Shown here: one piece after another, positions 12,380-46,767 of the stretch | Layout of the letters: every line of letters begins with the position of its first letter | How positions within the stretch are numbered: the first letter of the stretch is position 1 | Assembly: GCA_964016885.1 (NCBI GenBank) | Contig: OZ024744.1 | Location: 68,448,001 to 68,512,000 of the forward strand | DNA from: Eledone cirrhosa | Taxonomy: Eukaryota | Direction: 5' to 3' | DNA: 64,000 bases | The notes under the pieces: model-generated | The model's input: the letters and a program-made list of their open reading frames with translations, nothing else | Database searches by the model: none | What the model was told of the DNA's origin: nothing | Program-made: the position numbers and the translations under genes

Positions 12380-13504
12380 GCTTTCTTTATTAACCACAAG
12401 GGTAAAAGTGCACAATGGCAAGACTAATTTAACAATGAACATATAAAAAATATCAAATAAACTATGCATAAATATAACAAAATATATTCCCCGAAAGGGG
12501 TGGACGACCCCGGGGTGACTCAGGTACCCCACCAATCCTGAACCACCCGGCACTTCTAGGGCACCCAGGGAGAGCACCCCTCTCCTCAAGTTAGCTAGAC
12601 TATAGGCGCATGGTCAGAGTAGGCCCATTGACACGGGCCATTCTCGCCACATTCATCCACCTTTTAGCAAATGTACTGGGGGACACCACTTCTCTCTCCA
12701 CCCTCATCTTCCTTTCCAGGTGAAACTTTAAGAAGTTGATGAGGGATTGGCTGAAGATAAAATTGTCTGTCTTCAGTCCTTTTAATCTGGTCCACCATAT
12801 AACCTCTTTCGCAACCGCCACCAGACAGGAAAATTTCCTGCTCTTCCATACCTAAGGAAGGTGGGGGGTCGATCTTCACTATGGACTCGGCCGATAGCCG
12901 GATTCGTTCCACACGCGGCAGTAGCTGTTCGACATAACTCCACAAGTCAGTAATGCACGGACATTGAACAAGTGCGTGCAGAACGGTTTCGTCGTTCTGT
13001 GCGCATCTTGGGCAGGTCCGTCTGACAGCACTTCTGTGCCTGTAGAGTTTATCCCGAACCGGCAGTGCCCCCCGGTAGCACTGCCAAGCGAGGGATTTCT
13101 GGAAATTGTCCATCGTCCCAGGGTCGAAAGTCCTCCAGTACAGACTGGTCAGTTCCACTTCGCCGAGGCCCAAAGCTTCTTCGAGTGCGTCATCGCACTT
13201 GCCCACCACTAATCCTCTATAGAACTCGAGAGTGAAAGTTCCACTGATCGCATTGCCCGCTTGGTAGAGGGCAGTCAGTGCCTGGCAACATTCCAGGTGG
13301 TAGTCACCCAGTCTTGTTCTCTTCTTGACCCAGGACTGCAGTTCAGTCAAAGAAACGAGCTGCGGAAAGGCCCGTCTGACAAACGGCGACCACACCTGTT
13401 CACCGTTTAGGCAGAATATCTGGAGATGTCGCAGCCTCAACCCATGTCTGCGCATCATTAGCCACGGCATTCCCAGCCCTCCGCGTAGAGGGTGCTGGCA
13501 GCAG
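12380..13504 (-). mobile_element. Tx1-clade LINE copy A, 5'-truncated (ORF2 C-terminus plus 3'UTR)
   Basis: zf-RVT-type CPRC..ETVLHALVQC; closely similar to copy B; AATAAA near the 3' end; (AAT)n on both sides. Confidence 0.92.
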
Positions 13505-14064
13505 ATAATAATAATATATATGTGTGTGTGTATTTATTTCATCAATCTCGTAATGATGACAGACGCATTTGGTTTCGGCCTTTTTAGAACATGGAACGTA
13601 AAAGACCATTAGTGAACACCGCGATGCATTTTGTCCGCCACTTAAATGATTCTGTTCATCCACTACATAAAATAAAGAAACATGAAGCCAAGTTAATTGC
13701 ACAAGATGGCTACAAGAATAACTCATTCAATTCTCAGACAAAACGTAATAAAAGATCCAAACGAACAAAAGAGAAAAAATATATACTGAAACGTAACCCG
13801 CTTAATCAGCGATGGACAATTTCTTCAGAAGGTGGTCGACCTAATTCACAAAGAAAAGTTCAAGGATTACCAAATATAAATTTGTTTTAATTGCAGTATG
13901 GAACTCAATGTGTATGTAACTCCTGAAGAAATCGTAGAGGAGCCGTAATGACATACAGCATTTCATGGGTATTTTTACCACCTGGGGGAGCCCATCTCCT
14001 TTCCATAGCATGTGAGAGAGACAGGGGTGAATTGAGGAGGAGATATAGAGGAAGAATCGACTCC

Positions 14065-15207: not shown

Positions 15208-15860
15208 GTTTCTGATTTAGGCACAAGGCCAACAATTTTTGAGAAGGAGAAAATCGATTAAATTGACAATAATGTGTTACTAGTACTTTATTTTATCGAT
15301 CCTGTAAGAATGAAAGGCAAAGTTAACCTTGGCAAGAGTTGAACTTAGACCGTAAAGGGCAGTAACTCTATGCTGTAAAGCTTGGCATCGGACCCTCTAC
15401 CGATACTGCCAATCCACCACCCTAAATACCAATAATGGTTTGTTATATCGGCACAAGGCCAACCATTTTGGGGGAAGGGGAAAGTCGATTTAATCGACCA
15501 CACTGGTACCAATGAAGGGCAAAGTTAACCTCAGCGGGATTTGAACTCTGATCGTAAAGGGACGTTATTATCCCACAAAAATGTTTTCCGACGCCCTGTC
15601 GATGCTGTCAGTCTACCGCTCTACAACACAGAAATAATGATTTCTACTATAGGCACAAGGATAGCAATTTGGAGGGGGGGGGGGTCGATTAAATCTCCCC
15701 CAGTGCATTGCTGGTGCTTTATATTATCGACCCCTTAAGACTGAAAGGCAAAGTTAACCTCGGCGGGATTTAAAATCAGAACTCATAATGTTAAGGGTCG
15801 TAACTCCTTGCCGCGACGCAGGGTGTCCGATGCCCTAACGACCCTGCCAATCCAACGTCC
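15208..15860 (-). mobile_element. three tandem head-to-tail tRNA-SINE copies
   Basis: Tails (GGCACAAGG on +) near 15220, 15451 and 15652, each followed by the core and A/B-box head. Confidence 0.85.
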
Positions 15861-15894
<34 letters not shown>

Positions 15895-16172
15895 TATGAT
15901 TTCATTTATTGGGCACAAGGGCTGACATATAGGGGACAATACAAAAGATTGGGACAGTGGGGTTTTACAGAAAAATCGAGTAAACAATATGAATAAACAA
16001 AGTAACAATAACAAAGTAACAATAAAGTAACAAGAAAATTACAACAAGAAAAAATTCCCCAATAGGGGGGATGACCACCTAGGGTTCGCTCAGGTACGCC
16101 ACCAGTCCTGAACGACCCGACGCTTCGAGAGCACCCTGGAAGGGCACCCCTCTCCTCTTCAAATTTACCTAC

Positions 16173-19100
16173 CTACAGCCGCATGACCAGAGTAGGCCCA
16201 CTCACACGGGCCATTCTCGCCACATTCACCCACCTTTCAGCAAATGTACTGAGGGGCAGCACTTCTCTCTCCACCCTCACCTTCCTTTCCAAGTGAAACT
16301 TGAAAAAGTTGATGAGGGATTGGCCGAAGATAAAATTGTCTGTCTTCAGTCCTTTCAATCTCGTCCACCATACAACCTCTTTCGCTACTGCCACCAGACA
16401 AGGGAAAATTGCCTGCCCTTCCTGGCCAAAAGAAGGCGGCGGGTCGATCTTCACTATGGACTCGGCCGATAGCCGGATCCGTTCTACACGCGACAACAGC
16501 TGTTCAACATAAGTCCACAAATCAGTAATGCACGGACACTGGACGAGTGCGTGCAGAACGGTTTCGTCGCTCTGCGCGCATCTCGGACATGTCCGTCTGA
16601 CAGCACTTACCGTGCCTGTAGAATTTATCCCGAACCGGCAGTGCCCCCCCCCCCCCCCGTAGCACTGCCAAGCGAGGGATTTTTGGAAATTATCCATCTC
16701 CCCGGCTCGAAAGTCCTCCAGTACAGACTGGTTAGTTCGACTTCGTTGACTCCCAGAGCCTCTTCGAGTGCGTCATCGCACTTGCCCATCACTAATCCTC
16801 TATAGAACTCGAGAGTGGAAGTTACACTGACCGTATTGACCGCCTGGTAGAGGGCAGTGAGTGCCTGGCAACATTCCAGATGCCAGTCACCCAGTCTCGG
16901 TCTCTTCTTGAACCAGGACTGCAGCTCAGTCAAAGAAACGAACTGCGGAAAGGCCCGTCTGACAAACGGCGACCACACCTGTTCTCCGTTTAGGCAGAAT
17001 ATCTGGAGATGCCGCAGCCTCAGCGCGTGCCTGCGCATCATTAGCCACGACATGCCCAGCCCTCCACGTAGAGGGTGCTGGCAGCAGATGGACCGCCTCA
17101 CCAGCGGAACCTGACCCCTCCACAAGAATTTGAAGAGGAACCGCTCCAAGATGGCGAGGCGCGAACGGGGCAAGGGACGACAGTCAGACGGTAGTATATG
17201 ACGGACGCGATGTACGCGTTCGCCACCTCCGCCCGACCTTTCAGTGATAGCTTCATCCCAGCCCATTTCTGGGTGAGACTGACTACCCTGCCCGTCACCT
17301 CGTCCCAATTCTTATCCACCTGGAGGTCTGGCCCGAACCAAACCCCTAGCAACTTTACCGGTCCGTCCGTCCAGCGCCTAACGACGCTGTTGGACGGCAT
17401 GGACTTGCCTCTCCAGGTGCCGAGTTGCAAGCCTACTGACTTTTTCGGGTTAAGGTTTGCTCCCGTCAACCTTTCATAATCCTCCAATAAGTTACCGACC
17501 ACCACGATTTCTGAGGTGTCCGACACCATCACGGTGATGTCGTCCGCATAAGCCGACACAGCCTTTCCGCGTCCCTGTTTGAGCTGGATGCCCTGCAACA
17601 GCTCCAGCTTCCGCAGTAAAGGCTCGCGAGTCATTACGTACAGAAGGGAGGAGAGAGGGCACCCTTGACGGACCGATCGGGAGACCTGAAACGGTTCCGA
17701 GAGGTGGCCATTAATTTTGACCACCGAGCAGGTGCCGCTGTGCATTGCAGTGATCCAGCTTCTGAAGACGGGGCCGAAGCCAGCCGCCTTGAGGACAGCC
17801 TCCAGGTACCGATGGTCGACCCTATAGAATGCTTTCGATTGATCTAAATTGATCTGAGTCCCACCGAAGCCAGGTTTTCACCCTACCCTCTCTATGATGT
17901 ATCGCATTAGGTGGAGGTTGTCGTGTATAGACCTGGTTGGGATTGCGCAAGTTTGCGCCTCCCCAACCAAATCCCCGACGACAAGCGCCAACCTCTTCGC
18001 TAATACCCTGGCCAAAATCTTAAACTCTGTGTTGAGCAGAGTTATGGGTCTGAAATTGTCTAATGTGTCCCTCTTGTTCTCGTCTTTCCTTATCAGCGTC
18101 ACTACGCCCCGGCTCACAGAACTGGGAATACTCCCGTTTTGCTGCCAGTTGCAGTAGAGGGCTTCGAGGAGATTGGAGAACAAGTCTGGCATATTTACGT
18201 AAAGCTCGTAGGGCAGACCATCCAAACCGGGTGACTTGCGCCTCATGAAGCCTACAAGGGCATCCTGAATCTCGGCTGAAGTAATTGGCCTTTCGCAGCG
18301 CCCAGCGTCAGCCGTCGAGAGTTGCAGCAAGCCATCGAGGTAGGGACTGAAGTCCGCCACCATCTCTGACTCGCCACTTCCCCCGAACAACCGAGCAAAA
18401 TGTTGGCGAAAGGCCTCACACATCCTCTTGGAATCGCTCAGCTCGAGCCCGTCTCGGTCCGTCAAAGACCGAATCGTGGTGTTATTACCACGCTGCGCCT
18501 CTGCCACGCGGGCCCATTGAACAGCTTTGGTTCCCTCGTTTCTCAGAGCACGCGCCTTAGCTCTGACAATGCAACCTTCGTGTTTCGCATTGAAGAAATG
18601 GTCTAATGCCATTCTGGCCGCTAGCACATCAGTTGCAATGCCACTACCAATAGCCTCGTCTAACTTATCTACCAACTCTCCCTCCTTTCTATTTTTCTCT
18701 AATGCTACTTCTTTGCTAAACTCTATCGACATTACTCTAATCTCTCTTTTGAGAGCCCCCCACCATCTATTGTTGACGACTCCCCCTGTCAACTTTTTCT
18801 TAACTAAATTGTTGACCTGGTCCCTGTAAGCCTTACGTGCCGGAAATGACATGTTTAGCTTCCAGTAACCAGGTCCTAACCTACGTGTCTTATCTAGGTC
18901 GACCATACAGATCACAAACTTGTGATCTGAATAGGCGACCGTTTCAAAACGTGGACAGCTTACACTATTTCTGTCTATTTTCCTAATGAATATCCTGTCT
19001 ATATACGATCTAGATTACCCTATGCCGTTAGCCCAGGTCCACACTGGCGCATTAGGGAAATCTAGTCGGTACCTGTCAGACAGTTGGAACTGGCTGATCA

Positions 19101-19601
19101 GGTTCTTGAGGCTTTTGCACCCCCCGCTCCTATTGGATACTCCCACACAGTCCCAGCGTGCGTCTAAGATGCCGTTCCAGTCCCCCGCTAACAGTAAAGG
19201 GCGAGACGTATCCAGAAAGGCTTCCAGGCGTTTAAAGAAGTCCGACCGTCCTGCCCCAGTAGGAGAATAGACGGCCACCAGTCTAAAGGCACCACCTTCA
19301 TTATTGTTCACGTCCAGGACCACCAACTTCCCGTCCGGGTCCCGGAAGATCGACCTTACCTCGAGATCCAGGCCTTTCCTAAACAGCATTGCCACCCCGC
19401 CTCCCATTCCCGGCTGGCTAACAGATGCAAAGATCTGATAGTCGTCGAAAATGGGGGCTAGTGCGCGCGTGTCGGAAAAATGGTCTCGCTGACTGCAATT
19501 ACATCCATTTCTATAGACCTGAGGTCGTTGAGCAGGTGACCCTGCTTCCAGGACGATCCCAGGCCTCGAACATTTAAACATCCTACTCTTAATACGGTCA
19601 T
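16173..19601 (-). pseudogene. Tx1-B ORF2 (APE endonuclease + reverse transcriptase + CCHC), frameshifted
   Basis: MTVLRVGCLNVRGL, GDWN, SDH, GPGYWKLN, KSPGLDGLP, NFRPITLLN, QGCPLS, YADD, CPRC..H..C spread over several frames. Confidence 0.93.
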
Positions 19602-19632
19602 GTTAGCAGGTTAAACAGAGAGAGAGGAAGGT

Positions 19633-21602
19633 TTACTTACCTTCCGGGCTCTTGTGAAGGTCGGGTTGTTCGACTTCCATAGTTAGTGGAGTTTGGAACC
19701 CCTTTAAAAGTCTTGAAGTAGGTTTTACGTTCGGGGTTCCCACGTCCCGAGGAAAGCTGTCTCGTATTTCTTTGAATATGTCGAGCGACATTCGCACCAG
19801 AATCAAATCTTCCGGCACGCGAAATGTGCTTGATTTAAACATTTCCCCCTCTTTTTGTATATTTTCGCTTCGTGCTATGAGGGCCATCAGTTCCTTGTTG
19901 GTCCTCCTGACGAGCACGAAGTTTTGTATGTTTTGTTGATGTGATTTTATTTGTTTGCGTGACTGTGGTGGTGATGGATTTGGTGGTGTTGTTTCGGTTG
20001 TATCTATGTTTGTTGTGAGTGCGATGTCTGTGGTTTCAGATGTTTGTGTGTATATTTGTTCTTGCGTCTGTTTCAGTTGTTTGCGTTTGGGGGATTCTGG
20101 TGATGGTGATGGTGGTGTTGATGTTATTGGAGAGATGTTTGCGTGGGTGGTGTCTGCGTTTTTTTTTATTGTGGGTGCTTTTGTGCTTTGTTGAGTTTTT
20201 TTTTTCTTTTTGTGTTTCCTTTTTTGTATTTTGGGGGATTTGGGATTTCCCTCATCTTCACTACTGGTAGATGAGGGGTCTGTGTCTGTAAGTGTGTTTG
20301 TATGTATGTTTAAGGTTTTATTGGTGTGTGTATTTTTGGGGGGGAGGGGGGAATTTGACAGCTTTCCTCGTTTTCCCCCTGGGTGGTCAATGTTGGTGGT
20401 GTTTTTTCTATTGGTGTTGTTGTTGGTGGTTTTGCCGATGCAGGTGTTGGTTGTGGTCCCGCCCCGGCGTCGGCAGCAGTGGAGCCTTTCGACCCCTTGC
20501 CTCTTTCAGCAGTTGAGGGCAGAAGGCTGGCAAATGGGTTTTTCCCCCACAAACAAAACACTGCGGTCTTTTGCCTTCGGTCATAATGTGAATGACAGTC
20601 CCATTCTGAAGTCGGATATGGTCTGGGATTGTCTTCACATTCTCGGGCCTGATCTGGAGAAGGATCTCCAGGTCAACCCCGGACCAGTCCTCTCTGGCCG
20701 TTCTGGTCACTTCTATAGGGACTGTATCCGTCCCCTCCACAATCACACATCCCAGAAGCCACCGCATGTCAAGTCCTGGTGGGATTCTGGGAATGCGGAG
20801 ACGGGTCGTTCTTTTTTCCATGTGGGAGGGGTACATTATGACCTTGCTGGTTTTGCAAGGAGTCATGGCGTGTTTCATCGCGAGCGCTTCTGACTTGAAC
20901 AACACCGAAATGGTGCCGTACTGTCTGCCCCTCTCTATGTACTGGGTGTCTTCTCTGATGCACCTCAGCGCGACTTCGATATCTTCTTGTGGGATTAACG
21001 CTGCCTTTTTGGTCTGTGCTGAGATGCATCTATAATGCACCGTTTTGCGCTCCACTGCCTCAATAGCTTCTACCGGGACAGTTAAGTTGGCCCAAGTTTG
21101 CTCTTGCTTGATGAGCTTCCATGCCTGGGCCAACTTTTCATCTTTGTTTGAGAGGTCCATGTTGAAGCATGGCCTCTTTTTTGCTGCTGCCGCAGCAAAA
21201 GTAGTCTTGTTTTCGTTGGGGATGTTGTTGACGTTGTTCTTGTTGGTGTTGTTGTTAGCACTGTCGCTGTTATCATTGTTGTCTTTGCTGCCACCGTTGT
21301 TCTCGGTGCAGCTGGTATTGTTGCTATTGGTGTTGTCGCTATTTGTTTTCATGTTAGTGGTGTTGATATTGTTGTTGTATTTGTTATTTTTTTTTTTGTT
21401 ATCTGTATTTTCGTTGTCGCTGTTACTGTCATTTTTTTTTCAAATTAGAGTTCTTATTGGTATCATTGGTGTCTTTGTTTACCTTGTTTGTGGTGGTGTT
21501 TGTGTTATCAATGTGTGTTAATTTCGCTATAGCGCTCCTCTCAACTTCTACGTCGTTGTCGCACGACAGCCGACATATCGCTGGGGGACGTGGCTCAGCC
21601 AT
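19633..21602 (-). pseudogene. Tx1-B ORF1 (Asn-rich N-terminus, RRM-like region, zinc knuckle), frameshifted
   Basis: CFVCGGKTHLPAFC (CX2CX4HX4C); the terminal frame ends ..PEGK*. Confidence 0.85.
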
Positions 21603-21808
21603 GTTTTTTTTTCTTCGTAAATTTTTTAACATGTAAAGAAAAGTTAAAATATTTGGGCCAAGAGGCCCAAATATTATACTTTCCCCTTCACGGGGCAAAG
21701 TCTAAGGGCTTATATCCCTTACACAACAAGAAATATTTAACAACAAATAATTTAAACAGGCAAATAAAGCGACTTACTGTGAGCGAGCAAAATACGTCCG
21801 CTTAGACC

Positions 21809-21841
<33 letters not shown>

Positions 21842-22144
21842 TTCTTTATTGGCCACAAGGGCTGACATCAATAAAAACATTACAGACGGCACAGGACGGT
21901 ACAGGAGGGTACGATGTGGGTTTTGTGCGTGTAAATATTTTTATTATTTATAAAAGAATAGAAAAAAAAAGGACATAGAAACATATATATATATAAACAA
22001 TAAAAATGAAAATTGAAACAAGGAAAAATTCCCCAATAGGGGGGGAAACCTCCGAGGGTTACTCGTGGCGAAAACCACACAAAAGACCACGGCCACCCTG
22101 ACCACCAGGGCAAGCGACCTCTCTCAATGTTTCCATCTCTCAAA

Positions 22145-25100
22145 CTACAGACGTATATTCAGAGCGGTCCATTTCACTCGGACCATTCTCGCTACATTCA
22201 CCCACCTTTCAACAAACTTGCTAGAGGACAGCACTTGCCTCTCCACCCTGATTTACCTCTTCAAGTGAAACTTGAAAAGGTTAATTAGGGATTCGCCGAA
22301 GAGGAAAGTGTCTGTCTTAACCCTTTTAACCTTGTCCACCACACAATCTCTTTCGCCATGGCCATCAGTCAGATGAAACCCGCCTGCCCTTCCTCCTCGA
22401 AGGAAGACGTCGAGACCATCTGCACAATGGACTCAGACGATAACCGGATCAGTCCTAACGCGACAGCAACTGTTCGACATAGCTCCACAAGTCAGCAATG
22501 CTCGGACACTGAACGAATGCGTGCACGACGGTTTCGTTGCTCTGCACGCATTTCGGACAGGCTCGGCTGACAGCATTTCCGTGCCTGTAGTGCTTATCTC
22601 GAACCGGCAACGCTCCCCGGTAGCACAGCTAGGTCAGGGATTTTTGGAAGTTATCCATAGGCCCTGGGCTGAAAGTTCTCCGGAAGAGAGCAAACAGCTG
22701 ATCTTCTTCGACGCCCAGGATCTCTCCGAGAACGTCGTCACTCTTCCCCTCCACTAGTCCTTTATAGAACGCCGAGGTGGATGTTCGACCGATACTGGTG
22801 CCCAGCTGGCAGAGGGCAGTGAACGCCTGGAGACATTCCAGTTTCCAAGCGCTATCAAGGAGACGAGCTGTGGGAAAACGTGCCTGGCGAACGACGACCA
22901 CACCTGTTCACCGTCAAGGAAGCACCAGAGGTGTCGCAGCCTCAGCGCATATTTGCGCATTATCAGCCATGGCATGACCAGTGCTCCACGCAACGGGTGT
23001 TGACAGCAGATGGATCGTCTGACCATGGGAGCGCGTCCCTTCCACAAAAAGCGGAAGGGAGGCGCTCCATTTTAGTGAGAGCTGGGCCGGGGCAAGGGAC
23101 AACGGTGAGGCGGTAGCAGATGACGGATGCGATGTACGCATTCTCCACCTCCGCCCGGCCTTTAAGGGACAGCTTCCTCTCGGCCTATTTCTGGGTCAAG
23201 GAGGCCACCTTGCTCGTCACCTGGTTCCAGTTTTTCTCCATCTGGAGGTCCGGTCCGAACCAGACCCCGAGCAATTTAACCGGACCGTCCGTCCAACGCC
23301 CCATGATGCTGTCGGACAGCATGGACTTGCCTCTCCAGGTGCCGAGCTGCAAGCCCACCGACTTTTCCTGCTTTATCTTTGCTCCTGTCACTGCTTCGTA
23401 TTCCTTGAGAGCGATGCCGAGCATCTGGACGTGTCTGGTGCTCGACACCACCACGGTGACGTCGTCGGCGTAGGCCGACTCGGATTTCCCGCATCCTAGT
23501 TCGCGTGGGACGCCCCTCATCGCCCCCAGTTTGTGCAGTTACGGCTCGAGAGCCAATACGTACAAGAGGGACGAGAGGGGGAATCCCTGGCGGACCGAGC
23601 GCATGATGCTGAACCGCTGCGACAGGTGACTGTTGACCCTCGCAATCGAGCAGATGTCGCTGTACATCGCAGCGATCCAACCCCTGAAAACGGGCCCGAA
23701 ACCAGCTGCCTCGAGGACCGTCGCCAGGTAACGATGGTCGACCCTATCGAATGCTTTGGATTAATCCAAGTTGATCAGGGCCCCACCCGTGCCAGGTTCC
23801 TTAACCACCCTCTCTATGATGTATCGCATGAGGTGGAGGTTGTCGTGTATGGATCTGTCCGGAATGGCGCATGTATGCGCCTCTCCCACCAGACCCTTCA
23901 CGAAAAGCGCTAACCTCGTTGCTAACACCTTGACCAAAATCTTGAACCCTGCCTTTAGCAGGGTTATGGGCCTGAAATTATCGATAACATCCCGCTTGTT
24001 CGGGTCTTTTCTCAGCGGCGCCTCCGCTCCCCGGCTCACAAAACTGGGAATGCTCCCGTTCTGCTGCCAGTTGCAGTAGACGTCTGCCAAGAGGTCACCG
24101 AACAAGTCTGGCATAAATGCATATAGCTTGTAGGGCAGACCATCAACACTGTGCTGCGGTCGTCGAGAGACGAGGCAGTCTGTCGAGGTATGTATTGAAG
24201 TCCATACACCGATCCGGCCCGCCGCTGCTCCCGAACAGTTCAGCAAAGTGCTGCTGAAAAGCTTCGCACATCTCGGGTTCGAGCAACACGCGCCCGTTTT
24301 GATCAGATAAAGACCGAATTGTGGCTTTGTTGCCACGTCGTGCCTCTGCCACCCGGGCCCATTGGACGGCTTTTGTCCCCGCGTGTTTCAGAGCACGCTC
24401 TCTAGCCCTGACAATGCAGCCTTCGTGTTTTGCGTTGAAGAATTGGTCGACTGACAATCTTGCCGCAAGCACGTCGTTTGCGATGCCTGTCCTAAACGCC
24501 TCTTCTAGCTTTCTGATTAGCTCTCCCTCTACTCTATTTTCCTCTTTCACTAGTCCTTTGCTAAACCTAATCGACTCTACTTTAATTGCCCTTTTCAGGG
24601 CGAACCACCACCTGTTGTTTACGACCGCTCTCCTCAACGCCCGCTTAACTAATACGCTAATCCAGTCTCTGTAGGCTTTGCGCGCCGGGAAAGACACGTT
24701 CAGCTTCTAGTAAACGGGTCCTTGTCTGTGCAGTCGACTATTTTAAATTGTGGACAACCTATACTAGCCTTATTTAGTTCTCTGCAGAATACCCTATCGA
24801 GATACGATCTGGATGACCCGATACGGTTTGTCCATGTCCACATTGGCACATTCGGATGATCCAGTCGATACCTGTCAGACAGTGCAAAACGTCTGAGCAA
24901 GTTGGTGAGGCTCTTGCACCCTCCTCCCCTATCCACTAGCCCCACACAATCCCAGGGTGCATCCAAGATACCGTTCCAGTCGCCCACTAACACTAAAGAG
25001 CGGGACGTTCGAAGAAAGGTCTCTAGACGTCTAAAGAAATCTGGCCGTCCTGTCCCTGTCGGAGCATAGACGGCTACTAGCCTGAAAGCGTTGCCTTCGG

Positions 25101-25401
25101 TGCCGCTTACGTCCAACACCACCGACTTACTTTCTGGGTCCAGGAAGATGGTCCGTATGGCGAGACCCAAGCCTTTCCGAAACAACACAGCCACTCCGCC
25201 CCCCGCTCCCGGACAGCTCGGAGATGCGTACACCTCGTAACTGTCGAAGATCGGTGCGAAAGCTTGCGTTTCGGAGATTCTCGTCTCACTGATGGCCACC
25301 ACATCTATGTTTAGTGACCTGAGATCGTTAAGCAAGTGACCCTGCTTCCAAACCGAGCGCAAGCCACGCACGTTTACACTTCCGATCCTGAATACGTCCA
25401 T
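22145..25401 (-). pseudogene. Tx1-C ORF2 (APE-RT), disrupted
   Basis: MDVFRIGSVNVRGL, GDWN, YLDR, NFRPITLL, YADD; contains deletions and frameshifts. Confidence 0.9.
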
Positions 25402-25433
25402 GTTGGGTGCGGAACGGGGCAAGTGAGAAAGGA

Positions 25434-27251
25434 TCACTTACCTTGATCGTCTGGTGAAGGGACCGTTGAATCGTCCCTTCGGCTGGTCGTCGGCTCTTCT
25501 GTGAGTATATCGGAGTATACTCTCCGGTTGAGTGCCCCCCTCCTAGGTCTCTGAAATCACCAAAATTTCATTTTAATGTTTGTGTATTGTTTCTGTGATA
25601 TTCTTACCAGTCTTATGTTCGTTGGTGTTTTGATTGGTGCTGGTATTATGTTGCCGTGCTGTGAAATGTCTGCGTGTTCAATTATGTAAGTCATTAGTTT
25701 CTTGTGTGTATTTATTGCTGTGCATTTCTATTTCTGGGGGTGGTGTGTGGTTCTGCTATTTTCTTGTTGTTGCTGCGTGTGTGTGTTTTGTTGTGTTTGC
25801 GAGGTTGGTGTTTGTGGTGGTGTTGCTGAAGGTGTTGTTGTTGTTGGCGGTGGGGTTGCCGCCGGTGGTGATGGTGGTGCTAGTGTGGGTGGTGATGGTG
25901 TTGGTGGTGTTGCTGCTGTAAGTCTCTTTGCAGTAGCCTTTGCCCTTTTTTCATTTCTTCCCTCCCTTTTCGAAGGCTACGATGCGCTGCTTCTGCGTTT
26001 GTGCCTTCTTGCGACCTTTTGTCATCCCTCTCCCACCTCACACTCCATGTCCGATTCTATGAGGTCGGGGAGGGGTTCCATCTCCACTCTTTCACTTGTT
26101 GTTGTTTGTGATGGTTGCAGTGGAGTCGCTGTTGCATCTGCAGTTGGTATTACTGTTGTTGTTGTTAATACTTCCACTGCTGGTGTTGTTCTTGATTTCC
26201 GTGGCGTGGGTATGGGTGCCACGGACCTATCCTTCCTGGTTGCCGCTTGTCCTGTTGCTGGTAGCCGTGGAGCCGGTTTCGGAAGGAGGGTTTTTTTTTC
26301 TTTTCTCAGGGCCTTCTCATTGCAGAAAGCCCTGAGGTGAGTCTTCGACCCACAGCGAAAGCATTTCGGACGTTTGCCCTCAACACTTATGGGAAGTTGA
26401 GTGCCGTTATCGAAGTCTATCACATCCGGGATAGCTTCGATACACTCCTGGTTGGTTTGAATTAACATCTCAATGGAGGCGCCGACCCAATCTTCTCGTA
26501 CTTTTTTCTGTACTTGCAGTACGGTTGTTTTGTCCTCGTTTCCGACGAGGACAGACGCGGCCAGCCAACAAGGGGCCATCCCGGGGGAGGGGGGACTTGG
26601 GTCAGTTTGACCCTCACAATATTTTGCCCGCAGTAGGAGGGCACTAACACAATTTCCTCGCTCCTTAGGTTCACTAAGGATTCAGCCTTTGCCTCCCGTC
26701 GTGTGGCAAAAAGCACGTCCACGGTGGCACATTTCTTGCCTCGGATGATATGCGTTTTCCGCTGCCACACAGACCCTAAGGCTTTTTGTATTTGAGCCTC
26801 TGTGGCTCTTTCAACCCTACGTGAATTTGTGCTTAGTGTACGGTACGTGACCGGTACAGTGCTGTTGGGTTTCGAAAAATTCTTCGGCTGCCTTGCAGAT
26901 CACTCGGTTACCGGTTTTCGTCCCCATCTTCCTTGCTTCCTGTAATTCCTCATTTGTTATAAGGATGGTTTCCAGGTTCTTTGCGATATCTGCAAACGAG
27001 ATTGGGTTTTCTTTCTTGTTGTTGTTGTTGACGTCAGTGCTGCTGTTACTTTTGTTGTTTCTGCTGGTACTAAGACCACCGCCGCCGCTGTTGCTGTTGA
27101 TGTTGTTGTTGTTGCTAAACTTGTTATTGTTGTTGCCACTGCTGCTGTTGTTGTTTATGCTGCTTCTGATGTTGTTGCAGCTGCTACTAGTATTTTCCTC
27201 GCCACTGTTGTTGATGCTGCTGCTGTTATTACGGCTGCTGCTATTCTTCAT
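25434..27251 (-). pseudogene. Tx1-C ORF1, frameshifted
   Basis: Asn/Ser-rich N-terminus, CFRCGSKTHLRAFC knuckle, ends ..DDQGK*. Confidence 0.82.
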
Positions 27252-27522
27252 GACGTCAGACGAATGAAATGGCTTTCCGTATTTACCGCACACGTCTTTC
27301 GTCGTTGTCGTTGTCGTGGAGAAATGTTCCACGGTACGCGCGTTCTCTTGATGAAGAACGCTAGGAGAAAGTACATTTTTCTTTTTCTTTAGTGGCGTCG
27401 CTTGCGAAAGAGGCGACAGAGGCGAAACCACATTTAGAGAAGGGAGGGAGAGAGACAATCTTTTCTCTGACGTAATGATTACTATACCTTACAGAGCCGA
27501 GCCTCCGTCAACCATGGCATTC

Positions 27523-27568
<46 letters not shown>

Positions 27569-27570
<2 letters not shown>

Positions 27571-28139
27571 GGCTGGAGACATGATGTGATGGGCAGGGTG
27601 ATCCACTGGCACCTATGCAAAGTAAACAATTTACCACATTCTGAGAAGTGGTATGAGCATAAGACAGAGTCGGTGATGGAAAACTATCAGGTGAAGGTGC
27701 TTTGGGATTTTAGGATACAGACGGACAAGAAATTAGAACACAATAGGCCTGACCTGGTGGTTTGGGACAAGGGAAAAAGATCGTGCCTGATTGTGGATGT
27801 GGCCTGCCCATTCGACACGAGAGTGCAAGAAAAGGAGAGGGAGAAAATTAACCGATACCAGGACTTAAAGTGGGAGTTAAAAAGGATTTGGAACTACCAT
27901 GAAATCAAGGTCGTCCCGATTGCCATAGGCGCACTAGGTACTATCTCAAAGAGTTTCCAATGATGGTTAAAGAAGATTAGTCCAGCCTTGCTTTTTGGAA
28001 CACTTCAAAAAGCATGCTTGCTGGGAACAGCAAGAACCCTCCGATACGTCCTGAATATCCGATGCTGCAGGTAGCGGCTTGATATTCATTTCAACAAACT
28101 TTCCAGTTAACTAACATCAATGACTGAGACTGACAGAAC
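27569..28139 (+). mobile_element. R4/Dong-clade RLE non-LTR element, 5'-truncated
   Basis: RHD..WYEH..VLWDF..RPDLVV..IVDVACP..EK..YQDL..VVPIAIGALG..LQKACLLGTARTLR (PD-D/ExK restriction-like endonuclease); (TAA)n on both sides. Confidence 0.88.
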
Positions 28140-28177
28140 AATAATAATAATAATAATGATGATGATGATGATGATAA

Positions 28178-28385
28178 TTTTTACTATAAGCACAAGGCCA
28201 GCAATTTGCGAGAAGGGAAAGTCAATTAAATTGTCTTAACTGGTACTTTATTTTATCGACCCCTAAAGGATGAAAGGCACAGCTAACCGGGGTGGGATTT
28301 GAACTCAGAACGTAAAGGGCTGTAACTCTATTCTACAAAGCATAGTGTCTGATGCTCTACCTTTACTGTTAATCCTCAACACACC
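28178..28385 (-). mobile_element. tRNA-SINE
   Basis: Tail, core and B-box; abuts the (AAT)/(GAT)n tract. Confidence 0.75.
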
Positions 28386-35375: not shown

Positions 35376-35895
35376 GACAGTCGCAAAGGTTGAGGAAAAC
35401 ATGCGTAAAGATCGGCGGATCACTCTCGATGCTCACTGCATTTTGGTTCCTGAGGTTTCCCGAAGCACCATCCACAGGATTTTAACAGAAAAATTGCGAC
35501 TGTCTCGTCGGAAATTGACGGTCTCCCGCTCCTTTGTCCGTCGTGAATTTTAGTACGACCAGCTGTAAACTCTCTACACCACTTGCGAACGTTTTTGACA
35601 TCCATGCACGACTGTCCATACACTTCCGTCAATTGGCGATGAATTTCAATCGGTTCAACGCCTTTTGCGTTCAAAAACCGAATAACTGCGCGAACTTCGC
35701 ACTTGGCGGTAGCGTTCAACGGGAGCTCCATTCTCAACGGCTGCCAAGCCAAGATTGAGCATCCCAGCGAAGCGCGCGCATGCTTGTTTGGGAGTGAAGG
35801 AAACACCAATCACAACAGTGTTGCCAACACCCGTACGAACAGTTTCTCTGCGTCCCCATCGCTTTGGAGACCTTATTTTGGGGATTACACTCGTA
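35376..35895 (-). mobile_element. mariner-type DNA transposon 5' relic (TIR plus N-terminal HTH), internally inverted
   Basis: TA-CGAGTG TIR start; EVRAVIRFLNAKG..EIHRQLTEVYG..VRKWCREF.AGR..HD..RSGRPS. Confidence 0.85.
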
Positions 35896-36559: not shown

Positions 36560-37715
36560 GTTGTGGGGTGACCATAACTGTGAGCAATAGATTAGTCTCT
36601 TATGCTGAATGTTCTCAGAATTCAACCTACCAGTCGACTGTACATTGCTGTCATTTTGGTGATGTGTGCATGAAACAATGTATCATTGCTCGTGTTCATA
36701 GCCAGATGCTATATTGATTTTGAGTCGGGGATGTCCATTCAGTGTACCTTTGTTGTGGTGGTCCTATGTTTGTGGGTTGATAGCAGAAGGCTTGAAACTT
36801 ATCTGCATTAAATTACATATTGTGTTTTTTCAGCCCATCTGTATATGGCATCTAAATTCTGTTGTGAGAGAGTAGCATCAACTGGTTTCTTAATTGTCTG
36901 TGCTACTTTCATGTTATCTGCATAGCTTGTGAGAAAGGCTATCCGTATTACAGAGCGTATGACTGAGAGAGCTACCACAAACATTAAGACAGTTCCCTGG
37001 GGCATGCCGCTTGTTATTGACGTTTCCCTTGAGTTGGCTGCAACGTTCTGGCTTCTGTCATGAAGTCATGAAGCCGTTCACCTAGTTTTCTAGCTATGCC
37101 AGAGCTACATAATTTGTGACATATTCCATAATCAACCTTGTCGAAGACCTTCACAAGATCGAGATATATGATATCGGTTCTCGAGCAGTCTCGCAGATGT
37201 TTGAGTATCCAATCATAATGCTGTAAGAGGTGCGTAAGACAACTTCTACCTGGGTGAAAGCCATGCTGAATGTCAGTTAGAAGATCATTTTCCTCTAGAA
37301 AAGTTATCAGTTTCCTTCTGATGATTCGTTCCATGACTTTGCTGATATATGAGGTCAGGGAGACAGGTCTGTAGTTTTATCATCTCTGCTTCCTTCTTTA
37401 TGAATAGGACATATTATGTCTTCTTTTAGTTTTCCGGGTAGTTTACCATTTGCCAGTGATCTTTGGAAGGGACCTGCAGTGTTTTGCTAATGTTCGATTG
37501 CATATTTTTAGGAGGATTGCTGGGAAAGCATCAGGGCCAACTCCCGAATTTGGTCTCATTTCGTCAAGGGCAGATATTAGATCTTTCACCTTTAGAGCTA
37601 TGTGGGTCGTGGTTTCCATTTCTCCGTGTAATGTGGTTGTGCTGAAGAACTCATCTGGCTTATTTATTTTCACGTGACTCATTGGAGGTGTGATAACACT
37701 TTTATATTGTTCAGT
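36560..37715 (-). mobile_element. CR1/L2-group LINE reverse transcriptase fragment, decayed
   Basis: GPDAFPAILLK, YRPVSLTS..KVMERII, QHGFHPGRSCLT, YLDLVKVFDKV, PQGTVL, YADN. Confidence 0.85.
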
Positions 37716-39987: not shown

Positions 39988-40316
39988 AACTTTATCTCTC
40001 TCTCTCTCTATCTCTATCTCTATCTCTCTCCCCCCTCTCTCTCTCAATATATATATATATAGAGAGAGAGATAGATAGATAGATAGATGGATATGTTTCT
40101 TTATTAGCCACAGGGGCACAAAAGAAGGGGGAAGTTTACATACAATAAAAACGTGTAAAATATTAACACAAATGCAAATTAAAAATTAGTCGATTTTCCC
40201 CAATAGGGGGAGACAGTTCATATGGGTAACTCATACCCCCGAAAAAATGTGCAACCCTCATCTCCAGGAGTAAGAAAAGTTTGTATTCCTTTCCTCTCCT
40301 CCTCCTTTTCCTCAAC

Positions 40317-43300
40317 CTACAGGCTGATATAGAGAGAAGGCCCATTCACTCGGGCCATTCTCACCACTTTCACCCACCTTTCATAAAACTTGCTGGGGTA
40401 CAGCACCTCTCTCTCCACCCTGATTCTTCTTCCAAATTGGTATTTGAAAAAAAAGAATCAGTTGTTGGCCAGAGAGAAAGGTGTCTGACCTCAGCCCTTT
40501 TAACCTTGTCCACCATACAACCTCTTTCGCAATAGCTATCACACAAAAGAAAACCGCCTCACTTTCGTTTTTGAAGGAGAGTGGCGGTTTGATTATGACA
40601 ATGGACTCGGTTTCTTCGTCTCGCACGCACCTCGGACAGATCTTTTTTGCAGGGTCCCTGCCCGGGCGCCCATACCTGTAGAGATTGTCTCGAACTGGTA
40701 GAGCTCCTGGGTAGCACTGCCAGGCCAGGGACTTTTGGAAGTTGTCCATCGGTCCCGGGCGGAAGGTCCTACCGAACAGACTGGCCAGTTCATCTTCCTC
40801 TATGCCTAGAGTTTCACCGAGCGCGTCGTCGCACTTGCTGCGGATCAACCCTCTATAGAATGACGAAGTGGAGTCTCCACTGATCGCCGGGACCGCCTGC
40901 CAGAGGGCTATGAGCGCCTGAGTACATTCGATGTGCCAGTCGCCATTTTTCTCGGTTTTTGCTTGACCCAGGACTTCAGCTCGCTCAGCGAGACGAGTCG
41001 TGGGAAGGCTCGCCTCGCGAACGGGGCCCACACCGGTTGTCCGGTTAGGAAAACGTAGAGATGTCGCAGCCTGAGCGCGTGTTTGCGTGTCGTCAGCCAT
41101 GGCAACCCCAGCCCTCCGTTGGAAGGGTGTTGGCAGCAGATGGATCTTCTCACCAAAGGATCCCGCCTCTTCCAAAGGAATTGGAAGAGCGCGCGCTCCA
41201 TTTTGGTGAGCGTTTTGGCTGGGCAAGGCACGACGGTCAAGCGGTAGTAGATGGCGGACGCTATAAAAGTGTTCGCCACCTCCGCTCGACCTTTCAAGGA
41301 TAGTTTGCACTTCTGGGTGAGTGCAAACACCTTGGCCGTCACCTCGTTCCAATTCTCCTCCACCTGGAGGTCCGGACCAAACCAGACCCCGAGCAGCTTT
41401 ACCGGTCCTTCCGTCCAGCGTCCGACGACGCCATCGGAAGGCATCGGTTTGTCTCTCCACGGTCCGAGTTGCAAACTGATGAACTTGTCCGGTTCAGCTT
41501 CGCTCCTGTGAAACTTTCGTATTCCTTCAGTAAGGTGCCGACTTCCTCGATTTGCGAGGCATTCGACACAATTACTGTCTCGTTGTCGGCGTATGCCGAC
41601 GCCGCTTTCCGCAATCCCGGTTCCAGAGGGATGCCCTGCAATAGCTCCAGCTTCCGCAGTAGTGGCTCGAGAGTCAGTACGTAGAGAAGGGAGGAGAGAG
41701 GGCATCCCTGTCGAATGGATCGCGTGATAGGGAACGGCTCCGAGAGGTAGCCGTTCACCTTGACCCTTGAGCAGATGTTGCTGTTGGGCATTGCAGCAAT
41801 CCAGCCCCTGAACACGGGTCCGAAGCCTGCCGCCCCGAGCACCGCATCCAGGTAACGATGGTCAACCCTATCGAAAGCCTTAGACTGATCCAAGTTGATC
41901 GGGGCCCCACCGAAGCCGGGTTTTCACCCTACCCTCTCTATGATGTATCGCATGAGGTGGAGGTTGTCGTGTATGGACTTGGTCGGGATTGCGCATGTCT
42001 GCGCTTCTCCAACCAAGTTCTCGACGACAAGCGCCAGCCTCTTTGTCAACACCTTGGCCAAAATCTGTAACTCTGTGTTTAGCAGAGTTATGGGCCGGAA
42101 GTTGCCTATGTCATCCCCCTTATTCTCGTCCTTCCTGACTAGTGTGACTACGCCCCCGGTCACAGAACTGGGAATTCTCCCGTTCTGTTGCCAGTTGCAC
42201 TAGACCGCTTCCAGGAGACCGGAGAATAAGTCCGGCATTGCTACGTAAAATTTGTAGGGTAGACCGTCGAGACCTGGAGATTTGTGTTTGCCGCATTGGC
42301 TCAGCGTGTACCCTATCTCAGCGGCTGAAATCCGCTTTTCGCAGAACTTTGTCTCGCTGTCCGAGAGTCGCGGTAGGCCGTCGAGGTATGGACCGAAATC
42401 CATAGACCCTCCCGGCGCACCGCACTGCCCGAACAGTTGAGCAAAGTGCCGCTGAAAGGCCGCACACATCTGCTTCGGCTCACGTATCACGCGTCCGTTT
42501 TGGTCATTCAAAGACCGAATCGTGGACTTGTTGCCACTTTTTGCCTCCGTCACTCGGGCCCAGCTAACAGCTTTGGCTCCCTCGTTTCCCAGAGCACGTA
42601 TTTTGCTTCTGATAACGCAGCCCTCGCGCTTTGCGTCGAAGAACTCGTCCAAGGCCGTTCTCGTTGCTATCACGCTGGCTTAGTGGCCTCTTCTACTTTA
42701 TCTACCAGTTCCTTCTCGGTTCTATTTCTATCTAACGTTAATTCTTTACTAAAAACTAACGAGTCTAATCTAACTGCCCTCTTGAGAGAGTACCACCATC
42801 TGTTGTTGACAATGGCCCCTGTCAAGTGCTGTTTAACTAAAGTGCTAACCCGTCTACTGTAGGCTTTGCATGTCGGTAACGACAAGTTCAGCTTCCAGTA
42901 GCCGGGTCCTTGTCTATGGGTTCTATCAAGGTTGGCCATGCAGGTCACTAGTTTGTGATCTGAATAGGCAACCATGAACATTTGTGGACAGCTTAACATG
43001 TCCCTATCCTTATTTCTAACTAGAACCCTATCTAGGTACTATCTAGATGTTCCGCTACGATTAGTCCACGTCCACAGCGGCACAGTCGGAAAATCTAGTC
43101 GATATCTATCGACCAGGTCAAATCGGTCGATTAACTGTTTGAGGCTGTTACACCCCCCCCCCTTTATCGGGACATGCTCCCACATAATCCCAACGTGCAT
43201 CTAGGATTTCATTCCAGTCCCCCACTAAAAGCAAGGAGCGGGACGTTCCCAGAAAAGTCTCTAGACGTTTGAAGAAGTCTGGCCACGGTGTCCTGGATGG

Positions 43301-43641
43301 GACATATGCTGCCACCAGCCTGAAGGCTCCACCTTCACTACCGTCAACGTCTAGGACCACCAGTCGACCCTCCGGGTCCAGATGTGTTACCGTCTGTGTT
43401 ACGAGGCCCAGGTGTTTTCGCAGCAAAACGGCAACCCCGCCCCCACCCCCCGACCGACAGAGACATGCGTAGATCTCAAAGTCATCGAAGATGGGGCCTA
43501 GCTGTCGCTCGCTGTGGATCCTGGACTCGCAAATGGCTACCATATCCATACTGTGCGACCTAGGTTGTTTAAGAGTTTGCCCTGTTTCCAGGGCATCCCC
43601 AGGCCGCGTACGTTCACATATCCAACTCTTATATTGGCCAT
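40317..43641 (-). pseudogene. Tx1-D ORF2 (APE-RT), disrupted
   Basis: MANIRVGYVNVRGL, GDWN, SDH, GPGYWKLN, KSPGLDGLP, NFRPITLLN, QGCPLS, YADN. Confidence 0.9.
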
Positions 43642-43674
43642 GTTGGTGCTGAAAAGTTAAAAGAGGAAAAGAAA

Positions 43675-45589
43675 TCACTCACCCTTCGTCTCCTGGGGAC
43701 CAGGCTGCACGATTTCCATGGCAGTGTTGGAGGGGTTGTCTGGGTGGGTGGTGGTTTGCGGCGGGGTGGGGACGGAGATGTTTGGTGGAGTAGGGTCTGG
43801 TGGGATGGGGGTGTCTGGGGTGGGGAGACATTTGAGAAGGACGCGGTTAAGTGGTTTCACGCAGGAATTCCCCACATCCTTTTGAAATGTTTCTTTTAGG
43901 GACCTATAAGTTTGTATAGGGACCTTAATCAGTTTTAGGTTTAGTTTTTTGTTATTTTTAATAGAGTGGGCGAAAGTTTTCCCTTCGGTTTTCACCGAAG
44001 GGTTGTTTGTGATGGTCTCCATTAGTGTTTTGTTTTCAGTGTTTATGTAAGTGTAAGTGTAATTTTCTTGTGTTTGTTTTTGTCTGTAGTTCTTGTGTGT
44101 GCTTTCGTTTTGTTGTAGGTATTTTGTTTTCAGGAGGTGGGGGTTTTGTTTGTGATGTTTTTGTTGTTTGTGTTGGTGGTTGTAGGTTTGTGGTAGTGTT
44201 TGCTGGTTTTTTGCTTTTGTGATGTCTTTTCTTTCTTTTCGAGCGATGGGGTTCTCCCTCGTCTTCACTGGGTGTTGGCGAGATAGCCTCATTTGTTGTA
44301 TCGTCTGTGTGATTGGGGAGGGGTATGTCTTGGGGAGCTATTGTGTCAGTATGTGATTTTGCAGTGGTTTTAGGTGGAGTGGGGTTGGGTGGGACTGTGT
44401 TTGTTGTGGTTATTTTTGTGTGTTGGTGTTGTTGTTGTTTTGGTGGTGTTGGTGGTTGTGTTGTTTTGATGGGTGTCGGCAGAAGAGGCTTTTTTTATTC
44501 ATTAATTTAGGACAGGAAGCCCTCAGGTGACCCCTGCTAAAGCAATGGTAACATGAAGGCCGCCTACCATCAACCGAAAAGTTTATGTAGCTGAGTCCGT
44601 CCACGACTACACGTTGTGGGATCATAGCTATTCGCTCTGGGCTCATTTGGACCAGAACTTCAATGCTAGTCCCATTGAATACATCTCTGGGGGACTTTCC
44701 TACTGACAGTATTCTGTCTTCATCAAAATTGATGAAGCCGCACAGTATCCACCATATGTTCACCTTAGGTGTGACACTCGTGATTTTAATCTTTTGTGTC
44801 CTTTTTCCCATGTATGTAGGGAAAAAGGTGTACAGGTTGGATACAATTGGCGACACAGAGTAATTTTGGGCCGTCAATTGATCCTTCATGAGTACCGAAA
44901 TACTCCCAAAAAGTTTGCTTCTTTGAATGAATGCAATATCATTCATTGAATTTTTGAAAACCGGTCAATTTCTTTCTGTGACAATTGGACTGGTTTTCGG
45001 GTAGAATTGGAAACTGTCCTAAAAGCTATCGTTTTGAGAGCAGTTTCCTTGCGAATTTCTACCAGAGAATTGATGCTGAAAGCACCATTTCTTTCGAAAG
45101 TGACATATCTCCTAGCGTCCTTTAAAAGTTGTTCGGTATTTGTTATGTCGAGATATGTCAGTTCCTCCTTTTTTTGAACTGTCTGTGCAAAGGAGATTTT
45201 TTTTTTTTTGTGGAATTATCCGTGTTGGTGGTGTTGTCATTATTGTTGTTATTGTTGTTGTTATTCTTGTTGTCACTGATGTTGATATTATTCGTATTTT
45301 CCTTGGTGTTGGTGTTGTTGTCTTTGATGCTGGTGTTATTGGTGTTGTCTTTATTTTTTTCTTTGTTGTTGTTGTCATTGTTGTTTTTATCATCATTATT
45401 GGTGTTGTTGTTATTTTTGTTGTCATTGAACCGTTTGGTGTCATTTGTGTTGTTTGGATATGAATTTGTTTTTACATTTTCATTTCGTCTTTCCATCTCC
45501 ATAGTATCTAGGGAAGAAGACGATGTTGACTGCAAGCTCTGTAGTCTTACCGCCTCTCCACCACCATTATCGTTGAACGCAGCGTTCAT
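43675..45589 (-). pseudogene. Tx1-D ORF1, frameshifted
   Basis: Asn-rich N-terminus, zinc knuckle, ends ..TKGE*. Confidence 0.82.
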
Positions 45590-45815
45590 AACGTAATCAA
45601 ACTTCTTACAATATTTTTTCAAAAATTCGATGGAGAAAAAAATTTTCAAACGAATATTTCGCCCCTGTAGGGTCGAAAATGAGTTGACCCACCACCTGAA
45701 GGTCCAGGCGGGGGATCAAGTTACACAATAATATACAATTTAACTGAAAACTCACGTTTTTTTCTTACATAAAATAACGGAAACTTCTCCGCGAAGTTAG
45801 ACACGTCTGGTAGAG

Positions 45816-45943
<128 letters not shown>

Positions 45944-46262: not shown

Positions 46263-46767
46263 GTTTCCTGTATACGAACGAGGGGAGTCTTGTACTCTCA
46301 GTCGCTTCAAGCCATGAAACCGGGGTTAAGCACCGGCTTGACGAGCCTTCTTCCTCAAGACAGACTTTAGACTTAGACAAACGGTAAAAGGATTATCTCG
46401 TTTGGGTGGTTGCTGCCCCCACAGTCGTAGTAAATACAAGGTTAACAATCTCTTTTTCTTCATTTATGTTATATAATCATTATATGCAGATCTATTAATG
46501 TATATAGAAAAGTAAAGAAGTGAGTTTTAACCAAATGTCCTTCTTCGATTTATATATTTCATCATACCACAGATTTAATATATTGTATTATATCTCTGGT
46601 TAACCGAGCTTTCTTTTTCTAATAGTTTAAAAGCTCCTCGAAAAAACAAAAGAACATGGCCGTAATCTATTATATACTTCTAAATGTTTCTCTATATGTG
46701 TGTCCCATCTTTTTGCCCGTAATATTTTAAGTATTTCTTATTATACATTATTTATTTCCTCTTTACG

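Follow-up and report, generated by a model that had tools for sequence, protein, structure and literature searches.

Could ORF2 serve as an optional intron in a LINE family of Eledone cirrhosa?

Can the catalytic reading frame of a long interspersed nuclear element (LINE) be removed from its RNA as an intron? The question is raised by a stretch of 64,000 nucleotides (nt) from Eledone cirrhosa (GenBank assembly GCA_964016885.1, contig OZ024744.1, positions 68,448,001 to 68,512,000), hereafter called the window, which is AT-rich, microsatellite-laden eukaryotic DNA. Self-BLAST detected in it four related LINEs on the minus strand: copies A, B and C, which are full-length, and copy D, which is 5′-truncated. 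These labels are our own. The original prediction had described, in copy C and in a copy B that we took to be the element at 15.9-21.8 kb, a splice donor at the end of open reading frame 1 (ORF1) and an acceptor at the end of ORF2, so that ORF2 would lie in an intron. We report here how this signature is distributed among the copies and outside the window, and which readings of it are the more probable.

A donor consensus at the end of ORF1

In copy C, ORF1 ends with CAA G/GT AAG TGA (the slash marks the putative exon-intron boundary), the GT lying at 25441-25440 and the stop codon at 25436-25434 of the minus strand. ORF2 ends at 22145 and is followed by TT TGA, so that the spliced ORF1 would end Q-V-stop; the positions given in the original prediction hold to the base. 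The signature is common to copies C and B, as announced, and it was found in copy A as well, with its 3′ side also in copy D. The donors are the following.

25436-25442, minus strand: copy C donor G/GTAAGT, phase 1, overlapping the codons for Gly and Lys and reaching the first base of the ORF1 stop.
19633-19641, minus strand: copy B donor G/GTAAGT and ORF1 stop TAA, reading GAAG/GTAAGTAA at 19640.
43675-43683, minus strand: copy A donor G/GTGAGT and ORF1 stop TGA, reading AAGG/GTGAGTGA at 43682.

G/GTRAGT (R, purine) spans the final codons of ORF1 and runs into the stop; its place, two codons ahead of the stop, and its phase are the same in all three long copies. The copies are well diverged: their ORF2 sequences are 70-74% identical, 97 of 245 four-fold sites have the same base in A, B and C, and the final 300 nt of ORF1 before the donor are only 42-50% alike. 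The claim that copies B and C otherwise have little sequence in common is right for the ORF1 tail (46% identity over 287 aligned nt). It does not extend to the 3′ untranslated region (UTR), where the two are 63% identical over 235 columns, with identical blocks. The spacers between the two ORFs share their length (39-41 nt from GT to ATG), a pyrimidine content of 77-79% and the AACATG that includes the ORF2 start. The sole change on the intron side of the donor is A/G at +3, which turns Lys into Glu and keeps the donor consensus.

The motif GGTRAGT is depleted in the window, with 8 occurrences on both strands against 15.9 expected from shuffles, and three of these 8 fall on the three ORF1 stops. 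On the sense strand it is the sole one in C (5681 nt) and in A (5721 nt), and one of two in B; no GTRAG column is common to A, B and C anywhere in ORF2 and the UTR. Codon usage was also informative: all three copies have GGT in 2 of 45 Gly columns, and a codon ending in G in 18 of 56 Lys/Glu/Gln columns, which gives jointly about 0.014. GGT followed by RAG in all three copies is therefore unlikely even if Gly-Lys/Glu were required by the protein. A pyrimidine tract behind a donor, such as that of the spacers, would aid recruitment of the U1 small nuclear ribonucleoprotein (snRNP). The evidence for the donor is strong, and we conclude that it is very likely functional.

Relatives of ORF1 outside the window were sought by a profile-free HMMER search, in which 233 were found and 150 listed. 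Named homologs came from Octopus sinensis, O. bimaculoides, O. vulgaris and Argonauta hians, which makes the host an octopod, and no relatives were found in bacterial and archaeal genome contigs. Among the matches listed, seven distinct homologs continue beyond the C-terminal domain, the match being weak for three of the seven; P0065 (an 83-residue core fragment with a G-K end), P0056 (which stops inside the C-terminal domain) and P0151 (which duplicates P0054) were left out of this count. A G-K-type end is present in two of the seven, P0009 (an ENA contig, D-Q-G-K) and P0004 (Argonauta, E-G-K-S), for which tail composition gives a P of about 0.02. In a tree built from 50 of the 158 rows, P0004 clusters with A, B and C at 94/94, below the strict mark of the tool, and P0009 takes no resolved position. 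Since two of seven homologs carry the end, and since P0004 groups with the window copies, the donor motif seems to mark one sub-lineage.

Further observations were made on these homologs. The P0009 contig, with 2209 nt, has about the length expected of a spliced message, but its G-K end is of the unspliced type and a truncated assembly fits equally well, so that we gave it no weight. In P0005 (XP_036364761.1), a RefSeq model from O. sinensis, a Gly stands close to where the donor would be, and 18 residues of unrelated sequence come after it; we counted this protein as being without the motif, and it may be a spliced model that uses the donor. P0054 and P0151, on contigs of 3483 and 6159 nt, have identical ends. 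Cluster look-ups for 30 of the 150 listed matches yielded mostly singletons and no isoform pair differing at the C-terminus. Word-index searches of a 90% library for further full-length ORF1 proteins returned 0 of 2302 candidates, 0 of 232, and only the query P0004 among 7998 scored; they missed proteins known to be present and are thus uninformative on absence.

The end of ORF2 as a putative acceptor

On the 3′ side, the following features were noted.

22145-22150, minus strand: copy C acceptor CTGTAG, made of the last Leu codon and the ORF2 stop (CGT CTG TAG).
22140-22144, minus strand: copy C TT TGA, providing the rest of the split Val codon and the stop of the spliced ORF1.
16165-16178, minus strand: copy B acceptor CTGTAG then GT AGG TAA, reading CTGTAG/GTAGGTAA at 16173.
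40312-40322, minus strand: copy A acceptor CTGTAG then GT TGA, reading CTGTAG/GTTGA at 40317.
12595-12605, minus strand: copy D acceptor CTATAG then TC TAG, a phase-matched stop, reading CTATAG/TCTAG at 12600.

ORF2 ends with CTRTAG in all four copies and is followed, within two codons, by a stop in the phase of the donor. Counted in codons from the TAG, this stop is reached after 0 in C, 1 in B, 0 in A and 0 in D; in the two other phases, the first stop is reached after 6 and 87 codons in C, 88 and 0 in B, 32 and 50 in A, and 2 in D, where the last phase has none. By chance, a phase-matched stop is expected with a probability of 0.05-0.13 per copy. Three arrangements were found, NN TGA (C and A), NN TAG (D) and NN AGG TAA (B), and this diversity suggests that the stop itself was kept rather than its letters. 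The three long copies have 30 YAG columns (Y, pyrimidine) in common. Of these, only one is richer in pyrimidines than the terminal TAG, and only one other is followed by a stop in all three copies; the terminal TAG alone combines the two features.

When splicing is carried out in silico, the would-be intron holds exactly the spacer and ORF2, and leaves the 3′ UTR whole with its poly(A) signal. Joining 25442 to 22144 in copy C removes 3297 nt (25441-22145) and replaces the end D-Q-G-K-stop by D-Q-V-stop. For copy B, 3468 nt are removed and G-R-stop replaces G-K-stop; for copy A, 3366 nt, and G-stop replaces G-E-stop.

A number of points weigh against ORF2 being an intron. The pyrimidine tract of the acceptor is ordinary in C and B: by a simple ad hoc count at -22 to -5, which is not a species-trained score, C and B have 11 pyrimidines out of 18, A has 14 and D has 12, and pyrimidine-richer YAG sites number 11 of 112 in C, 14 of 124 in B, 0 of 111 in A and 2 of 31 in D. 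Any CTN codon for Leu before an amber stop gives YYNYAG for free. No clear branch-point consensus was seen ahead of the acceptor, nearer AGs occur 53-55 nt from the donor in all three copies, and in copy A a competing CAG, which may be private to that copy, ends 5 nt before the AG and could capture the splice. One of the other-phase readings, in B, likewise meets an immediate stop. As the four copies share ancestry (their 3′ UTRs are 50-69% alike), their stops amount to at most two or three independent observations, and the joint odds can serve only as an indication, the ranked features having been selected once the sequences had been inspected. Outside the window, five of the seven homologs (P0005, P0077, P0054, P0016 and P0047) lack a G-K/E end, and none has an unambiguous spliced-type end; protein ends do not reveal codons, so the homologs provide supporting evidence only. 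Finally, self-BLAST detected no spliced genomic copy, with an ORF1-UTR junction, within the window, A, B and C all carrying ORF2.

We consider the evidence for the acceptor to be moderate, weaker than that for the donor. The proposal that the motif was selectively kept is thus well supported for the donor and moderately supported for the acceptor and its phase-matched stop. The signature is real and non-random, and it comes out stronger than in the original prediction, since two more copies and two outside homologs agree with it. That donor and acceptor are joined by splicing is what we infer from their arrangement. ORF2 as an optional intron of 3.3-3.5 kb, spliced out part of the time to give an ORF1-only mRNA, is in our opinion the best single reading, with about equal chances of being right or wrong.

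All the long copies are dead. Frameshifts make up 6 of 7 private indels in C, 5 of 6 in B and 8 of 12 in A, and premature stops in gap-free blocks of ORF2 number 5, 2 and 3, respectively. As copy C is dead, any selection acted on its active ancestors, in the source lineage, and any junction reads would be expected of the family rather than of this locus.

Two further observations concern the acceptor region. In copy B, GTAGGTAA after the acceptor (16165-16172, minus strand) differs by one base from GTAAGTAA after the donor, an arrangement not found in A, C or D; splicing in B would nearly rebuild a donor, as at recursive splice sites. On the four sequences, a helix in the RNA across the end of ORF2 found no support, the stop TAG being unpaired and the adjoining predicted helix being broken in several of them.

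Other readings of the signature

The gap in strength between the two sites is what would be expected if the donor were a genuine, selected U1 snRNP site that is not spliced to the ORF2 stop, but shields the long RNA from premature 3′ end formation or tunes its processing, the TAG context being incidental. In the Ty1/copia element EVD, U1 at the 5′ splice site suppresses premature termination (PMC5580714, in excerpt), and in all three long copies AATAAA or ATTAAA is found in the A-rich ORF1, about 280-310 nt upstream of the donor. However, AATAAA is absent from ORF2, downstream of the donor, in A, B and C, and the phase-matched stop of all four copies is left unpredicted. Moreover, a strong donor without an acceptor of its own would be expected to splice into cryptic sites. 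We regard this reading as unlikely.

The signature might also have no splicing role, the donor motif being inherited with a spacer-ORF2 module, or kept for the G-K/E protein end or for stop-restart translation of ORF2, and the stops being due to luck. Only three donors are at hand at the DNA level, all of them related, the conserved spacer length and AACATG are such as a reinitiation signal might have, and the motif is missing from most of the outside ORF1 ends. Nevertheless, 8-9 fixed bases fit the donor consensus amid 42-50% identity, in a window where the motif is otherwise depleted; the Lys/Glu change is a charge reversal, and the codon choice is hard to reconcile with a constraint on the protein only. 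We regard an absence of splicing role, too, as unlikely.

Least probable, and in our view improbable, is a mini-intron of 53-55 nt running from the donor to an AG in ORF2 codon 5, which would remove the ORF1 stop, the spacer and the ORF2 start, turning ORF2 off and adding 1-4 residues to ORF1. The AG is at a matching place in the three copies (53, 54 and 55 nt), the spacer, whose richness in pyrimidines such an intron would account for, is of fixed length, and in B a CTAAC located 15 nt before the AG fits the fly minima of about 35 and 15 nt (PMC5762160, in excerpt; a title in its reference list concerns a pyrimidine tract between donor and branch point), but the branch-point consensus is present in B only, the AG belongs to an Arg codon, and a 3.7-kb 3′ UTR would remain on the product, to no obvious advantage. 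An in-frame ORF1-ORF2 fusion by such a mini-intron is possible in B and A (55, 58, 57 nt) and was rejected as a general function because C has no in-frame AG.

Sites that could allow removal of ORF1, rather than ORF2, were also noted. The spacer of copy A (43648-43675, minus strand) is a near-perfect 3′ splice site, with a long pyrimidine tract and TTTTCAG ending 7 nt before the ORF2 ATG. A GTRAGT lies about 30-60 nt from the 5′ end of B (21777) and of A (45755, GTGAGT, in the 5′ UTR), on the minus strand and without G at -1, and copy C has none. In A alone, splicing could also take out ORF1 and leave an RNA with ORF2 only. As an explanation for the family, ORF1 as an intron between a donor in the 5′ UTR and an acceptor ahead of the ORF2 ATG was discarded, since copy A alone would allow it: an AG preceding the ATG is missing from both B and C, and the 5′ UTR of C is without GTRAGT.

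The elements, their relatives and the proposed mode of expression

The four elements and the parts of copy C are listed below.

21841-27522, minus strand: copy C, an L1/Tx1-type LINE, decayed but full-length, with (ATT)n tracts on either side.
25434-27488, minus strand: copy C ORF1 region, in pieces (26817-27488, 26022-26681 and a C-terminal frame ending at 25434), with putative CCHC knuckle and C-terminal domain.
25402-25433, minus strand: copy C inter-ORF spacer, 32 nt, 78% pyrimidine, AAC directly before the ORF2 ATG.
22145-25401, minus strand: copy C ORF2 (endonuclease, reverse transcriptase, putative C-terminal zinc finger), decayed.
21841-22144, minus strand: copy C 3′ UTR (proposed last exon), with AATAAA at 21850 and 21945 and, around 22031-22042, a small C-run/G-run hairpin.
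15900-21808, minus strand: copy B, full-length, decayed, in tandem with C in one (ATT)n tract.
40095-45815, minus strand: copy A, full-length, decayed, between (CTAT)n-type tracts.
12380-13510, minus strand: copy D, a 5′-truncated relative of B (87% identical), between (ATT)n tracts; it is cut inside ORF2 and has no ORF1.

Copy C ORF2 carries an apurinic/apyrimidinic (AP) endonuclease (24703-25437, PF03372, E 8.6e-15), and a reverse transcriptase (RT) was identified (PF00078, E 3e-17), whose best solved relatives are L1 ORF2p, with E about 1e-13, versus 5e-5 for R2. The putative C-terminal zinc finger of ORF2 matches PF13966 (zf-RVT) at E 4.6e-4 with 21.2 bits, under the cut-off of 27.5, and its C-C-H-C pattern is visible in copy B. 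The elements have a separate upstream ORF1, no long terminal repeats (LTRs), and a simple-repeat 3′ tail behind the poly(A) signal. A putative CCHC knuckle in ORF1 is invariant in the three long copies, is matched by Pfam zf-CCHC in A only, at E 0.048, and an Atlas search of ORF1 points to CCHC and ZCCHC3-like clusters at 0.88-0.92. In the Tx1 clade, ORF1 carries RNA-binding domains and a CCHC knuckle. The element is an ordinary non-LTR retrotransposon of the L1 group, probably L1-Tx1.

L1-Tx1 elements (the Tx1 clade, Kibi, Koshi and the crocodilian families that target microsatellites) have two ORFs and in many cases insert into microsatellites (PMC4494074 and PMC3812793, both in excerpt). 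The window copies resemble them in these two respects, as well as in the AP endonuclease and RT of ORF2 and, putatively, in its zinc finger and in the CCHC knuckle of ORF1, and differ from the families described in their targets, (ATT)n and (CTAT)n. In the portions of these two papers available to us, splice sites bracketing ORF2 are not mentioned. Thirteen recently active L1-Tx1 families are recorded in O. vulgaris (PMC13282606, Table 1); in the main text of that repeat annotation, neither "splic" nor "intron" occurs.

Each of the four copies is flanked left and right by one and the same microsatellite, which is (ATT)n in the case of B, C and D and of a (CTAT)n type in that of A (40070-40095 and 45815-45930); the window is itself rich in microsatellites. 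It is possible that target specificity switched between sister families. Head to head with copy C, and between (AAT)n tracts, lies a 5′-truncated fragment of a LINE with a restriction-like endonuclease (27570-28140, plus strand); it matches the R2 C-terminus weakly (E 0.047), and from its motifs we take it to be R4/Dong-like. Counting B, C and this fragment, a single (ATT)n microsatellite holds three nested LINEs. In the 3′ UTRs of all four copies, a C-run/G-run hairpin (22031-22042 in C and matching places in A, B and D, minus strand) is kept together with an upstream GAGY-NACCC block, and the two are a candidate recognition signal for ORF2p.

Elsewhere in the window we noted a remnant with RT-like motifs at 62186-63570 (minus strand), presumably Penelope-type, without match in Pfam or PDB; a Mariner transposase helix-turn-helix fragment at 35423-35809 (minus strand, PF17906, E 2e-6); an RT fragment at 37017-37376 (minus strand, PF00078, E 7e-8); and a short dispersed repeat detected in many copies by self-BLAST (1007-1219, 15277-15437, 28239-28375, 46761-46894, 48994-49200 and 52444-52648), which is probably a short interspersed nuclear element. 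A Pfam scan of 150 of the 244 non-repetitive open frames gave only transposon matches above cut-off, and no host gene that would orient the insertions.

The closest parallel to ORF2 as an optional intron comes from LTR elements. Copia produces a spliced gag RNA by removing an intron of about 3 kb, and the Arabidopsis Ty1/copia element EVD makes a short shGAG RNA (PMC5580714, in excerpt). In both, as would be the case here on the basis of sequence, a splice that removes or disables the catalytic ORF yields a short mRNA for the structural protein, and the conserved donor at the end of the structural ORF in all three long window copies recalls the copia strategy. Copia and EVD, however, are LTR elements with a single gag-pol ORF, and the plant Ty1/copia intron is centred on the protease region and coupled to premature termination (same source). 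The window copies have two ORFs and an AP endonuclease, and no terminal repeats by self-BLAST; unlike in copia, their donor extends into the stop of ORF1, and that of ORF2 would at once serve as acceptor. They are not Ty1/copia elements, and the likeness lies in the mode of action only.

Among LINEs, human L1 RNA has functional donors and acceptors, and its spliced RNAs (SpIREs) can be retrotransposed. SpIRE splices occur within the 5′ UTR or between 5′ UTR and ORF1, damage the promoter or ORF1p, and have been called dead ends (PMC5860796, in excerpt), whereas in the window copies ORF1 would be left intact, and the splice sites look as if they were conserved between diverged families. HAL1 (half-L1) elements, made of ORF1 and a 3′ UTR, arose several times in mammals (PMC5753468, in excerpt). 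The proposed spliced RNA shares this structure, but HAL1 are genomic non-autonomous families and the window copies carry ORF2. We found no description of ORF2-removing splicing in a LINE in the literature searched, through listings and the beginnings of abstracts; Repbase, subscription journals and the primary HAL1 paper could hold a precedent.

A LINE requires ORF1p in large excess over ORF2p, which is usually explained by inefficient translation of ORF2 from one two-gene RNA. If ORF2 is indeed an optional intron, the full-length RNA would be spliced in part, from the ORF1 donor to the TAG ending ORF2, and a short ORF1-only mRNA, coding for just the RNA-packaging protein, would be present beside the two-gene RNA. 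The two ORF1 proteins would differ in their final one or two residues only. The spliced RNA would keep the 5′ UTR, a near-unchanged ORF1p, the 3′ UTR hairpin and the poly(A) signal, and would supply the ORF1p excess required by the LINE ribonucleoprotein, the unspliced RNA remaining the source of ORF2p and the insertion template. Under the rules of nonsense-mediated decay the spliced message should be stable, as its junction would precede the new stop, after which only 220-300 nt of 3′ UTR, instead of about 3.7 kb, would follow. Having an intact 3′ end, it could occasionally be copied in trans into ORF1-only insertions.

A broader form of this proposal, which we put forward tentatively and with somewhat less confidence than the intron itself, is that a cephalopod LINE lineage, present at least in Octopus-like hosts and Argonauta, may be under copia-style control. 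ORF2 would be a programmed optional intron with its own stop codon as acceptor, host splicing would set the ORF1p:ORF2p ratio and could silence transposition tissue by tissue, and the lineage would shed ORF1-only "half-LINE" RNAs able to seed non-autonomous families with exact splice junctions. Were the donor alone real, it would still be a conserved RNA signal in a LINE, worth annotating. A conserved splice removing ORF2 would be a second solution to the ORF1p:ORF2p ratio, convergent with that of copia LTR elements, and a direct route to ORF1-only, HAL1-like elements, and the host spliceosome would gain a switch over transposition in animals whose neurons express LINEs.

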